DNA from: Fimbriimonadales bacterium
GTDB lineage: Bacteria > Armatimonadota > Fimbriimonadia > Fimbriimonadales > ATM1
Reading direction: 5' to 3'
Assembly (NCBI GenBank): GCA_041744215.1
Contig: JBGTLG010000039.1
Span: 96,001-160,000 of the forward strand
DNA: 64,000 nucleotides
Below the pieces are notes generated by a model. That model saw only the letters and a program-made list of their open reading frames with translations. It searched no databases and was not told the DNA's origin. Of the stretch, positions 10,652 through 14,007 are shown in pieces. The position numbers and the translations under genes are program-made. How positions within the stretch are numbered: the first letter of the stretch is position 1; the number at the start of each line of letters is the position of its first letter.

Positions 10652-11956
10652 CTACCCCGCACTTTCCTCCATTTTGACCTTAGCCTTTGTTACCAGGTAC
10701 TCCAGAACCTTCTTTCTCATCGCCCCGAAGTGGAGTTCGTCCACCCGGCCGGCCCGGCGAATCGCTGTCCACGCATCTTCGGGGGACATTCGCTCATGGC
10801 GGGCGATCTCCGTAACCTGGTCCATGATGTCCGCCTTGTCAAGCTTCATTTCGAGCTTGGAAAAGATCTCTGTCATGAGTAGGGCGCGCTTCACCTCCAG
10901 GGTCGCCTCGGAGTGGATTTGCTGCCCCATTTGCTCGACCGTCATGTTGTTCTGCTGGGCGACATCCTCAAGGGTCATCGAGGCATCCACAGCCTCCTTT
11001 GCCAGGCCTTGAAGCCTCTGCTCTGCCACACCTTCGATCATCGTGTCTGGCGCGTGGATCGTCGAGGACTTTACCAGGGCGTCAAGAATCTGTTCATGGA
11101 CGAGGCTCTCCGCCCACCGCTCCTTTGCCCGCTCGATGCCCTCCCGAACGCGGGCGGTGAGTTCGTCAACGGATTCTGTGTTGAACTGTTGCGCGAACTC
11201 GTCAGTGAGGTCGGGGAGTTCTGGCGCGGACAAGGATCTGAGCCTGATCTGGCAACTGAGAAGCTTGCCCGACCAGTCCTTCTCCTGAAAATTCTCGGGG
11301 AACTGGAGGTCGGCGTGCTTGATCGCGTCGAGATCCATACCTGTGAGGATCTGGTCCAGCTGAGGGAAGGTCTGGCCGACGACCGCCATGAATGTGCGAC
11401 CATCGCCCTCCTCTTCGTCGACTTTGATATTGACGACCGCGAAGTCCCCTTCTCTTGCGCCTCGGGAATCAACGGCTTTTCGCGTCGCCTGGCCCTGGCG
11501 GAGTTCAGTTAGCTGGCGCTCTACCTCTTCGTCTGAGACCTCTGCGCTTGGCTTCGTAACCTCGATCCCTTCGATTGGGCCTAGCTCAACCTGCGGGGGT
11601 AGCGGTACCTTTGCCGTGAACTCGATTTCGCCTCCCTCACCCTCGAACTTCGTGATCTCGATCTTGGGTGCCGAGTGCGGCTGGAGGTTTTGTTCTTTGA
11701 CTGCCTCGGTGTAGGCGGTCTTCACAATCTCTTCGGCTGCGACTTCGTTCAGCCAGGCCGGGTCCACATACTGCTTCACGAGGTGAAGGGGAGCGGTGCC
11801 CGGGCGAAAGCCGGGAACCTTGATCTTCTTGGAAGCCTTCCTATAGGCTCGACCGAATCCGGCTCCGACCTGTGCCGATGAACATTGCACCTTGAGGAGA
11901 ATGGTGCACGGATTGAGGTCTTCGCGGACGATTTGCATGGAGGTTGAGGTCGACAT
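10652..11956 (-). CDS. tig: Trigger factor
   Basis: Ribosome-binding motif VPGFRPGTAP, FKBP-like middle domain, canonical tig-clpP-clpX order. Start at ATG 11956 or 11938. Confidence 0.95.
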   Translation of the reverse strand: MSTSTSMQIVREDLNPCTILLKVQCSSAQVGAGFGRAYRKASKKIKVPGFRPGTAPLHLVKQYVDPAWLNEVAAEEIVKTAYTEAVKEQNLQPHSAPKIEITKFEGEGGEIEFTAKVPLPPQVELGPIEGIEVTKPSAEVSDEEVERQLTELRQGQATRKAVDSRGAREGDFAVVNIKVDEEEGDGRTFMAVVGQTFPQLDQILTGMDLDAIKHADLQFPENFQEKDWSGKLLSCQIRLRSLSAPELPDLTDEFAQQFNTESVDELTARVREGIERAKERWAESLVHEQILDALVKSSTIHAPDTMIEGVAEQRLQGLAKEAVDASMTLEDVAQQNNMTVEQMGQQIHSEATLEVKRALLMTEIFSKLEMKLDKADIMDQVTEIARHERMSPEDAWTAIRRAGRVDELHFGAMRKKVLEYLVTKAKVKMEESAG

Positions 11957-12136
11957 GTGGAGAACGAGAAGGATACCTCTTGGGTACTTGGTGAGAGGGA
12001 GTGGAGCCTCGGGGGCGGCGTCCTCTTGCAGTTTGCCGTTACATGCCGAACTCAAACAAGGAGTCGGGCGAGGCTTCGGCGACTGATGGGGCTCAGGCCG
12101 AAGACTGTCAGACTAACAGCGTTCGATCAGCCAGAT

Positions 12137-12805
12137 TCACATCTTTTCAATCAGGATTGTGAAAACAGTGTCGTCTGCCCAGTCGTGGGAAAGGTGGGGA
12201 TCGAGCGCGAAGTCAACGCTCGCGCCAGCAATGACTGTCGTGATCACCTCGAACGTTAGGCCAATGGTATCTGTCCCCTCAATGAACGCGAACCAAACTT
12301 CGTTTGAACCGACAAACATTCTGGCCACAACACCGTTGCTGAGCGGACTTCCGTTTGCCTTTCGTAGAACTCCCGTTATCCTGACCAGACCAGTCGTCTC
12401 CGCGATCCACCTTCGGACAGCCCAGATTTCTTTCGGATGCGCGCTCCCTGACGTTGTGGTTCCGTTTGAATGAATGTTCGCGGCCTGCAGCAGAGCGTAA
12501 GACGAAGCTTCGTCAAACCACCAGGTACCGGCTGAGAACTGTGGCATGAGCTGAAAGTGTCCCGGGCTGAACGGTCCAGGATAAAAGCCATACTGCCAAT
12601 TGAGGTGACCTTGTACTGAAGAGAATTCCGCCACGGAGTTGGCGATCAGGGTTGGGCTACGCGAATTGCTCGGCGGGCAACCTGAGAGTGTGAGCCCCGC
12701 CAAGCACAACCCAAAGGGCGCCGCAATGCGACGCGTTATCGTCCTCCAATTCGCATGCCCAGCCCCATAACGGTCGGTCCCCTTCAAAGTGTGCGGCGAG
12801 TCCAA
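12137..12805 (-). CDS. Hypothetical lipoprotein carrying one ~170-aa beta-rich extracytoplasmic domain
   Basis: TTG start 8 nt after GGAGGTG; signal TRRIAAPFGLCLAGLTLSGC with lipobox; the mature domain is paralogous to the C-terminal domain of 12906..13784. Confidence 0.8.
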   Translation of the reverse strand: MDSPHTLKGTDRYGAGHANWRTITRRIAAPFGLCLAGLTLSGCPPSNSRSPTLIANSVAEFSSVQGHLNWQYGFYPGPFSPGHFQLMPQFSAGTWWFDEASSYALLQAANIHSNGTTTSGSAHPKEIWAVRRWIAETTGLVRITGVLRKANGSPLSNGVVARMFVGSNEVWFAFIEGTDTIGLTFEVITTVIAGASVDFALDPHLSHDWADDTVFTILIEKM

Positions 12806-12905
12806 CTATCAAGCACCTCCGATGTTCCGCATACTGTAAAGCAAGCGGCAGGAGATTTACAAGTCGTGTTTTTTCGTACGTAACCGAGTTGAAGGCGCCG
12901 TCTGC

Positions 12906-13784
12906 TCAGCGGAGAATGCGGAACCGAGTAATTGTAGCGTCGGCGCCGTCATCAGAGAAGAGCGGATCCAGCGCGAAGTCGATCGGATCGCCCTTCTTAA
13001 CTTCCAGGCGGAGGCTGTGGCTGATTCCAATTCCGTCGACGCCGCTTATCTTGTGACGCCAGATTTCTGCGCCTCGATGGTAGACGAGCAATCCAACACC
13101 GTTGCTGGACGCGCTGAAGTTGTCCTTGCGGAATTCAAGTTGGACGATAAGAGTACCGGATACCGGGGAGACCCACCTTCGAACAGGCCATTGTTCGACT
13201 TGCAAAGTGAGCCCGGTGGTCTTTCTCCCGTTCGGATGCGCACCATCCGCCCAGAGTCTCGTGTAGAAGGTTTCGCGGTGCACCATCCACCCACCTGGAC
13301 CGAAGTCAGACATCAGTCTGAATTCGCCGGGCAGATTGGGTTCGGAGAAGTAACCGTAGAACCAGTTGCGATAGCCCTGTTCTGATCCGAAGTCGGCGGC
13401 AGAATCTGCGAGAAGCTTGGGCTTGCTGTAGATTGCTCCGGCGAGTGCGAGCACGCCTATCGCCCCGGCGAGAGTGGTTGCAATCACCATAAACGTGCGG
13501 CGTGGTCGAGGAGTCGACTCGCGTGCTTTTCCGTTCACGAAGTCGGCATCGACAGTTGCGGATCCGACTGCTTCCCGGGCGTATCGCGCGATTGCAGCCG
13601 CCGAAGTTTCGACTCTCATCTTTGCGCGGATACGCGCCAGGTGTGATTCTACAGTCCGCGAAGAGACCCCGAGTTGCGTAGCAACGCCTTTCGCATGGCC
13701 GACCTCTTGATAGTGCTCAAGGACCTCGGCCTCCCTCTCGGTCAGCCCCCACGGATTGTTTGACTCGTTTGGCCGCCGTCCCAT
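12906..13784 (-). CDS. Membrane-anchored LuxR/GerE-type HTH transcription regulator with extracytoplasmic domain
   Basis: N-terminal LTEREAEVLE...AKGVATQLGVSSRTVESHLARIRAKM (LuxR HTH); one hydrophobic helix FMVIATTLAGAIGVLALAGAIY preceded by RPRR; C-terminal ~170-aa domain. GAGG precedes ATG 13784. Confidence 0.85.
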   Translation of the reverse strand: MGRRPNESNNPWGLTEREAEVLEHYQEVGHAKGVATQLGVSSRTVESHLARIRAKMRVETSAAAIARYAREAVGSATVDADFVNGKARESTPRPRRTFMVIATTLAGAIGVLALAGAIYSKPKLLADSAADFGSEQGYRNWFYGYFSEPNLPGEFRLMSDFGPGGWMVHRETFYTRLWADGAHPNGRKTTGLTLQVEQWPVRRWVSPVSGTLIVQLEFRKDNFSASSNGVGLLVYHRGAEIWRHKISGVDGIGISHSLRLEVKKGDPIDFALDPLFSDDGADATITRFRILR

Positions 13785-13826
13785 CTCTGTCCTCAAATCG
13801 TGCTGCGCTCAGCGTCGTTCGACTGG

Positions 13827-13832
13827 ATTATA
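13827..13832 (-). promoter_or_regulatory. -10 hexamer (TATAAT) for the LuxR-TM regulator
   Basis: Perfect TATAAT on the minus strand, 42 nt upstream of ATG 13784 and downstream of the tRNA terminator. Confidence 0.5.
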
Positions 13833-13897
13833 CCGACGGATAGACTGAGGGACGAAGTTCGCTCCCGTAGGACGGCTGAAGAAGATGGGCCTCAACG

Positions 13898-13923
13898 AAA
13901 AGTGCCCCGGCAAGCCAGGGCAC
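13898..13923 (-). terminator. Intrinsic terminator after tRNA-Gly
   Basis: Minus strand GTGCCCTGG-CTTG-CCGGGGCAC followed by TTTT. Confidence 0.7.
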
Positions 13924-13932
13924 CTTCAAACA

Positions 13933-14007
13933 TGGAGCGGGAAACGAGATTCGAACTCGCGACCCTCTCGTTGGCAACGAGATGCTCTACCACTGAGCTA
14001 TTCCCGC
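13933..14007 (-). tRNA. tRNA-Gly (GCC)
   Basis: GCGGGAATAGCTCAGTGGTAGAGCATCTCGTTGCCAACGAGAGGGTCGCGAGTTCGAATCTCGTTTCCCGCTCCA: cloverleaf, anticodon GCC, encoded CCA. Confidence 0.97.

Follow-up and report, generated by a model that had tools for sequence, protein, structure and literature searches.

The window analysed here is a stretch of 64,000 nucleotides (nt) from a Fimbriimonadales bacterium (assembly GCA_041744215.1, contig JBGTLG010000039.1, positions 96,001 to 160,000 of the forward strand). It contains two adjacent minus-strand genes that share a domain of ~170 amino acids (aa). The upstream gene encodes a LuxR/GerE-type regulator, in which a helix-turn-helix (HTH) is followed by one predicted transmembrane (TM) helix and then by the shared domain. 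The downstream gene encodes a candidate lipoprotein carrying a paralogous copy of that domain. The regulator is a member of the class of transmembrane transcription regulators (TTRs) with a new sensor domain, and the adjacent paralogous lipoprotein is the only unusual feature, seen once. On balance, and with somewhat better than even confidence, we favour the view that the GerE regulator is functional and bitopic and uses a domain resembling a carbohydrate-binding module (CBM) to sense a ligand outside the cytoplasm, probably a glycan-like one, with the lipoprotein as a co-transcribed output or accessory. The source assembly measures 2.68 Mb in 42 contigs and is 93% complete. The features of the two genes are given below; residue numbers of the regulator are counted from the TTG at 13796, not from the ATG.

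12906..13784, minus strand: regulator gene, single-pass TM GerE/LuxR protein of 292 aa from the ATG at 13784 (protein P0001); the open reading frame (ORF) is open from the TTG at 13796
13590..13745, minus strand: GerE/LuxR HTH of the regulator, residues 18-69 (PF00196, E 5.5e-10, 39.2 bits vs. a cut-off of 23.5)
13431..13505, minus strand: predicted single TM helix of the regulator, residues ~98-122, with RPRR before it (Kyte-Doolittle scan and AlphaFold2 helix 98-119)
12909..13421, minus strand: predicted extracytoplasmic beta-jelly-roll domain of the regulator, residues 126-296, a member of a secreted-domain family
12137..12805, minus strand: lipoprotein gene, 222 aa from a TTG start (protein P0002), signal peptide at residues 1-42, domain at residues 51-221 (12143-12655)

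Read from the TTG, the regulator ORF spans 12906..13796. The ATG at 13784, from which the protein opens MGRRPNES, is more probably the true start: the orthologue P0005 (71% identity) starts at precisely this position, and GAGGA stands 5 nt upstream. The same two points bear out the coordinates 12906..13784 assigned to the gene by a first-pass annotation of the window. With regard to the lipoprotein, homology to the family begins at residue ~51 and no in-frame ATG occurs before residue 87, which requires translation to begin at a TTG; GGAGGT stands 9-10 nt before the TTG at 12805. The public gene call (P0003) is a truncated protein of 136 aa from M87; signal peptide and lipobox are missing from it, as is the first third of the domain.

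The regulator HTH belongs to the LuxR/GerE type (PF00196), its match lying above the family threshold, and its structural matches include DesR (Z 8.5, 32% identity) and EsrB (Z 8.4). Pfam returned nothing above cut-off in the remaining 220 residues outside GerE. Sigma70_r4_2 stayed below its cut-off (23.2 vs. 25.7), and NCBIfam gave sub-threshold HTH matches only. A Kyte-Doolittle scan found a single segment at or above 1.6 (residues 104-122, score 2.18), so that a DNA-binding domain and a predicted TM helix stand in one polypeptide, as in a TTR. Five Lys/Arg residues occur in the 15 residues before the TM segment and two after it. This charge bias, together with the need for the HTH to reach DNA, supports a predicted topology with the N-terminus inside. 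The AlphaFold2 model of the regulator (30-row alignment; mean predicted local distance difference test (pLDDT) of 85) has three helices within residues 20-81 that form the HTH, a low-confidence linker (residues 83-97, pLDDT below 50), a TM helix (98-119), and a beta-sandwich (128-295, pLDDT above 95). The arrangement claimed in the first-pass annotation, with the HTH inside, one TM helix, and the domain outside, agrees with the GerE match, the single hydrophobic segment, and the charge bias.

We note that a twin-arginine-like stretch, RRxF[LM], precedes the TM helix in both regulator orthologues (13497-13508 in the window, residues 97-100 RPRR, then TFMV). TRRIAAPF occurs in the lipoprotein. 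A twin-arginine translocation signal (RRTFMV; weak UCR_Fe-S_N match, E 0.0062, below cut-off) was considered and rejected, as family members have no consistent twin-arginine motif.

A phmmer search with P0001, run exhaustively against 1.84 billion cluster representatives, yielded 1,442 matches at E<=1e-3, 519 at E<=1e-10, and 30 at E<=1e-30. Among the 150 matches listed, only P0005 (292 aa, 71% identity) matched P0001 over its full length; all others except P0121 matched only from residue ~91 on, that is, over the TM or signal region and the domain. The relatives of the domain come in three forms. Proteins of ~200-260 aa consist of a signal peptide, the domain, and a PEP-CTERM-type tail; others end in dockerin-like or type IX secretion system (T9SS) tails; and very large secreted proteins hold between one and seven copies, alongside RHS, cadherin, beta-helix, RCC1, TSP3, Ig, and FGE-sulfatase domains. 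A crude regular expression detected a PEP-CTERM-like tail in 33 of 161 proteins, and Pfam confirms it for P0130. In several members from metagenomes the domain is joined to glycosidase-like regions (Glyco_hydro_cc, CHB_HEX_C), and 297 near-full domain copies were present in the 156 proteins compared. An alignment of 30 members shows the signature ADSxxDFSxxQGxxNWxYGYY, GGHPNG, EQWAVRRWxS, GNGV, DFAxDPxxSxDxxD, with 10 invariant and 16 nearly invariant columns; the invariant positions are kept in both window proteins.

Two matches stand apart. P0121 (3,836 aa) lacks the domain and was matched by virtue of tandem GerE repeats. It combines nine such HTH repeats with HATPase_c_2 and, at its N-terminus, a WXG100-like domain; this architecture is odd, or may reflect an artefact of gene calling. 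P0144 (286 aa) fuses ARPP-1 (PF20208, residues 8-151) to the C-terminal two thirds of the domain and may be chimeric or truncated.

The shared domain had no sequence match in Pfam, NCBIfam, or PDB chains. The ESM Atlas held only unnamed 'hypothetical protein' clusters for it, and a literature search for the family's sequence motifs found no paper. Foldseek on the regulator domain gave weak jelly-roll matches to CBM35, CBM6, the Eph ligand-binding domain, MAM, and C1q (template-modelling score ~0.5 on the target). A fold search independent of Foldseek, with a stated background of Z 7-8, placed CBM51 first (Z 10.6 and 10.5; for the former, a root-mean-square deviation (rmsd) of 2.6 over 119 aligned residues), followed by the gingipain K1 adhesin (10.3) and by MAM, CBM36, CBM35, and CBM61 at 8-9. 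The jelly-roll fold class of the predicted domain is clear, and no specific family or ligand follows from it. Taken together, and as far as the fold is predicted correctly, the domain is a large, so far unnamed family of exported, surface-anchored, CBM-like-fold domains, with hundreds of clusters across Planctomycetota, Acidobacteriota, Myxococcota, and others.

Among 35 other domain loci (three near-duplicates included), five have carbohydrate-related flanking ORFs, namely GH16, alpha-L-fucosidase, CBM9 (three loci), pectate-lyase-like, and BT_3987-like/DUF5013 proteins, and two more have TonB-type barrel ORFs. The first-pass suggestion of a beta-rich domain with a carbohydrate-type ligand fits the jelly-roll matches of CBM51, CBM36, CBM35, MAM, and the adhesin (Z 8-10.6), and it fits the presence of relatives in glycosidase-like proteins and near carbohydrate-active genes.

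A second signalling protein has the same domain outside the membrane. P0053 (856 aa) is a Ser/Thr kinase (Pkinase at 242-495) with a TM helix at 654-672 and the domain matched at 641-843; its TM segment is strongly hydrophobic, with nine Lys/Arg before it, and the domain would start only ~8 residues after the membrane. This kinase and the window regulator argue that the domain was recruited at least twice as the outside module of signalling proteins. With its position behind a TM helix in both, it is a fair candidate for naming as a sensor or binding domain, and the shared ~170-aa domain would merit its own family model.

The function of the regulator is argued chiefly by its orthologue. In P0005 the HTH is almost unchanged (GHAKGVA, GVSSRTVESHLA.IRAKM), with a recognition helix near-invariant relative to P0001. 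The membrane-proximal YSKP and the family's invariant ectodomain residues are also retained, and the linker has diverged. The regulator TM helix aligns at the signal-peptide position of the secreted family members, so that the regulator most probably originated when a small LuxR gene became joined ahead of a gene for a secreted domain; this suggests that the signal peptide of a secreted member may have turned into a signal anchor after the fusion. It could be argued that such a fusion is an evolutionary accident, a lineage-specific joining of a LuxR gene to the first of two secreted-domain genes in a tRNA-flanked slot, now neutral or decaying. The architecture is indeed extremely rare, the pair adjoins tRNA-Gly at a place where a same-genus genome has a mobile-element-like AAA_25 gene, and the pair was not found in two same-genus genomes. 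Nonetheless, we regard an accident as highly improbable. P0005 keeps an intact frame, its near-invariant recognition helix, and the invariant ectodomain residues, which argues for purifying selection on both halves, and the window genes have no frameshifts or stops. Contig fragments identical to the pair also occur in three further runs of one study, probably the one from which this DNA came; these runs are not mutually independent and do not amount to independent support.

The distribution of the domain and the site in the same-genus genome G001 (AtpG 91% identical) bear on how widespread the pair is. The domain occurs in 4 of 60 close relatives' genomes searched and in neither of the two same-genus genomes. 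At the syntenic site, G001 has the order atpG, tRNA-Gly, a 447-aa AAA_25 protein, and tig, and the regulator/lipoprotein pair was not found there. The different occupant indicates that the slot between tRNA-Gly and tig is variable and that the window pair is lineage-specific. As a separate observation, the G001 occupant (L017:1730-3073) is an AAA_25 (RepA/DnaB-like) gene, and the slot has the appearance of a hot spot for integration. A search around the pair for att-like repeats of the tRNA end gave a single candidate, a 13-nt match at 85% (D7), which was rejected as unconvincing.

A regulator of another genome of the same phylum (G062) provides a further comparison. This protein of 501 aa (L053:349-1854, minus strand; L061:5081-6586, minus strand) likewise combines an N-terminal GerE (the HTH shares 52% identity over 73 residues) with a single TM-like segment and a domain outside. 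It differs from the window regulator in its beta-propeller-like ectodomain, which has weak PQQ_2, Vgb_lyase, and DUF6923 matches, and in its surroundings: no paralogue of the ectodomain was found within +/-5 kb, and the gene is immediately followed, on its own strand, by that for a 1,596-aa CARDB/CBM96/dockerin surface protein (L061:140-4930, minus strand). The G062 case makes ectodomain swapping in this TTR lineage plausible, as well as control of an adjacent surface-protein gene. From sequence, this points to a small lineage of N-terminal-GerE TM regulators with exchangeable outside domains, located beside surface-protein genes.

The lipoprotein has a charged n-region and a hydrophobic h-region, TRRIAAPFGLCLAG, followed by the lipobox L40-S41-G42-C43, with Cys43 encoded at 12677-12679. 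The lipobox consensus is [LVI][ASTVI][GAS]C. Both Lgt (PF01790) and LspA (PF01252) are encoded in the same genome, and P0002 is on these grounds a candidate bacterial lipoprotein. An exosortase is also encoded in the genome. Both window proteins end with the domain itself, without a PEP motif, TM helix, or basic tail, and so are not PEP-CTERM proteins.

BLASTP of regulator against lipoprotein gave 74 of 194 identities (38%, E 3e-38), far beyond chance, which confirms the earlier description of a lipoprotein made of the regulator's domain alone. That description also had the two aligned by hand without gaps at about 38%; the identity stands, and apart from a single 2-residue gap close to the C-terminus the domain is ungapped. 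The 2.68-Mb assembly contains no copies of the shared domain beyond these two. By identity, the lipoprotein is closest to the PEP-CTERM protein P0004 (46%; 47-48% over the domain) and about equally far from P0001 (38%), P0005 (39%), and P0156 (37%). A search with the lipoprotein found no close orthologue, this 46% match to a PEP-CTERM protein being the best.

To place the two copies, we built a FastTree phylogeny of 297 domain copies, each covering at least 80% of the hidden Markov model (two duplicate entries of the window proteins dropped), and an IQ-TREE phylogeny of 34 rows drawn from the 28 nearest rows to each query. In both trees P0001 and P0005 form a long-stemmed pair (100/99 support), and the lipoprotein lies elsewhere in an unresolved star. 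Forcing P0001, P0005, and the lipoprotein together costs 5.5 log-likelihood units (approximately unbiased (AU) test, p 0.33). Because the copies are not sisters in the trees, yet the AU test gives p 0.33, a local duplication of the sensor domain into the lipoprotein is neither supported nor rejected by these trees.

The first-pass annotation had proposed a co-component system, in which the lipoprotein would act on the ectodomain as a partner, obligate or regulatory, by heterodimerisation, as a ligand shuttle, or as a decoy, in the manner of ToxR/ToxS or VtrA/VtrC but with a homologous partner. We consider this possible and on the whole unlikely. In its favour, the genes are same-strand neighbours without an intervening terminator, and both domains would be tethered ~5-8 residues from the same membrane face. 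The Trp that the family conserves in its YWT motif is absent from both proteins, and both belong to the subgroup with a longer RK.N.S..SNGV loop; a common origin of the pair is not rejected (AU p 0.33). Two separate adjacent domain-bearing ORFs are unusual, occurring at 0 of the 35 other domain loci. Against a conserved pairing, the databases searched gave one regulator orthologue and no close lipoprotein orthologue, and none of the 78 flanking ORFs of those loci carries GerE (flanking regulators were of the AraC, GntR or LacI (two loci), and receiver-domain types). The lipoprotein is moreover nearer to P0004 (47-48%) than to the regulator (38%), the maximum-likelihood tree does not place the two as sisters, the pair was not found at the syntenic site of G001, and the analogous G062 regulator has no ectodomain paralogue within +/-5 kb. 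Complex prediction with regulator residues 124-296 and the mature lipoprotein (44-222), run with alignments, returned an ipSAE of 0.00 in two runs without controls, and so gives no evidence either way.

In our view, the lipoprotein is more likely a regulated output or a ligand-sharing accessory than an obligate co-receptor. The more specific idea that a CBM-like surface domain serves as outside sensor, working with its membrane-tethered paralogue as a co-receptor or decoy that sets regulator dimerisation, seems to us quite unlikely. If true, such pairing of a regulator with a lipoprotein paralogue would introduce a new principle of design, resting on a single locus.

Between 8 and 18 kb in the window, every gene is on the minus strand. 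In the order of transcription these are the atp operon, tRNA-Gly(GCC), the regulator, the lipoprotein, tig, clpP, clpX, and a phoU-like gene. The features that frame the two-gene unit are:

13933..14007, minus strand: tRNA-Gly(GCC), found by ARAGORN, directly upstream of the regulator
13898..13927, minus strand: terminator-like hairpin after the tRNA, an inverted repeat of 13 bp followed by UUUUCGUU (minimum free energy -21.8 kcal/mol, z -2.2)
12806..12905, minus strand: spacer of 100 bp between regulator and lipoprotein (fold z-score -0.35, no unusual structure)

Because the terminator-like hairpin separates the two-gene unit from the upstream tRNA, the regulator probably has its own promoter in 13785-13897. 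A terminator scan and the fold z-score revealed no terminator-like hairpin with a U-run in the spacer 12806-12905, and the regulator and lipoprotein genes are probably co-transcribed. A sigma-70 promoter scan returned 0 sites, and no LuxR-box-like palindromes common to the upstream regions of both genes were found. With regard to the gene that follows, the tig ORF is listed at 10652-12055 with a TTG further upstream as its start (467 aa). Judged by its G001 counterpart (MSTSTSMN...), the true start seems to be an ATG ~32 codons downstream, which would leave ~180 bp between the lipoprotein stop and tig.

The favoured reading would work as follows. The regulator would be a bitopic TTR with a cytoplasmic N-terminal HTH, one TM helix, and a jelly-roll domain ~5 residues outside the membrane. 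We infer that an extracytoplasmic ligand, probably a glycan or surface polymer, may alter the self-association of the ectodomain and that this may in turn shift the dimeric DNA binding of the tethered GerE HTH at membrane-proximal promoters. The most plausible target promoter would be that of the regulator's own two-gene unit. The lipoprotein would then present a second family member at a similar height, its domain starting ~8 residues after the lipidated Cys.

It is also conceivable that the tethered factor is inactive and that a signal at the ectodomain triggers site-1 and site-2 cleavage, freeing the GerE HTH as with anti-sigma factors. The layout is compatible with such a release, given a short cytoplasmic HTH, a poorly conserved low-confidence linker (83-97), one TM helix, and an outside domain. 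Even so, the unit contains no protease gene and no recognisable cleavage motif, and characterised TTRs such as ToxR and CadC act while membrane-bound (compare PMC10269533). We therefore hold proteolytic activation to be improbable and retain ligand-dependent control by the membrane-bound regulator as the preferred reading.

Several observations weigh against this preferred reading and call for caution. A word-indexed search with the full regulator gave eight matches, two of them full-length (the window protein and P0005), and a search with residues 1-125 alone gave two matches, again these two proteins; only two sequences of this regulator architecture thus occur in the databases searched. The architecture was not found in five species-representative loci, all of which were domain-only. 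In 27 metagenome loci, queried with an alignment of the two orthologues, no match began before residue 79. Among 400 other genomes of the phylum there was no full-length match, and 12 of the 400 had partial matches, to the domain or to the HTH. The spacer contains a weak sigma-70-like motif, 8/12 by reading of the sequence. The fold scores of Z 8-10.6 are only modestly above the background of 7-8, and fold matches show no function; the carbohydrate-related neighbours of family members are circumstantial. Finally, the ligand, the DNA target, the topology, and the expression in the proposed mechanism are all matters that we infer. If the regulator is functional, it would give a signalling role to a large, uncharacterised exported-domain family.

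Comparison with known systems shows where the locus departs from them. The first-pass annotation had presented a membrane-spanning LuxR protein as unusual, which was wrong. In a census of 50,302 TTRs, GerE is the DNA-binding domain in 4,943 (9.8%; supplementary Table 1A; PMC10269533), and one such regulator, BguR, has been characterised. BguR, from marine Bacteroidota, is a membrane GerE one-component activator of a glycan-utilisation locus and activates transcription of adjacent genes (bioRxiv 10.64898/2026.01.10.698779). As in the window regulator, GerE is joined in BguR/SusR proteins by a single TM helix to a periplasmic domain that presumably senses glycans, and no phosphorelay is involved (same source). 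The polarity of BguR is opposite, however: this 940-aa protein has a signal peptide, an N-terminal beta-propeller and Y_Y_Y sensor, and a C-terminal GerE, and it comes from a different phylum with a different sensor fold (bioRxiv 10.64898/2026.01.10.698779). The window GerE is N-terminal, Y_Y_Y has no match, and the sensor is a single predicted jelly-roll, which sets the window regulator apart from the BguR/SusR type.

The ToxR/ToxS and VtrA/VtrC systems, as described in PMC9214523, resemble the window pair in that a bitopic transcription factor with its N-terminus inside is followed by a gene for an exported partner. They use OmpR-type winged helices, whereas the window regulator uses GerE; Trans_reg_C reached only E 0.14 on it (12.7 bits vs. 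a cut-off of 26.2). The ToxS/VtrC partner is lipocalin-like and non-homologous to the regulator's periplasmic part, in contrast to the window lipoprotein, which is 38% identical to the regulator's predicted jelly-roll (CBM/MAM/adhesin-like). In those systems the heterodimer is experimentally established and the pairing is conserved across many genomes, whereas the window pair was seen at one locus. A paralogue-partnered design would therefore differ from co-component systems of the ToxR/ToxS type. A literature search by title and abstract for a TM GerE regulator with a lipoprotein partner gave nothing relevant among the matches listed.

As to the sensor, CBM51, CBM35/36, gingipain K1, and MAM share the predicted fold (Z 10.6-8.1, 111-133 residues aligned, rmsd 2.6-3.5), and CBM-type modules, like the window domain, are appended in large secreted proteins. 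The window domain differs from the CBM, adhesin, and MAM domains in sequence, with 4-13% identity and no sequence-profile match to a PDB chain or Pfam family. With regard to the census itself, its catalogued GerE TTRs have, like the window regulator, a DNA-binding domain and a TM helix in one protein. Single-pass forms predominate, and one listed example with GerE before the sensor domain is GerE,2CSK_N (one TM helix, 248 aa; PMC10269533). An adjacent paralogous lipoprotein is not described for the catalogued TTRs in the part of the census available. About 57% of the TTRs have no recognisable second domain (PMC10269533), and the window regulator, its outside domain being unnamed, would fall into this bin. 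It adds an N-terminal-GerE form with a CBM-like sensor to the ~57% of TTRs whose sensor parts are unrecognised (PMC10269533).

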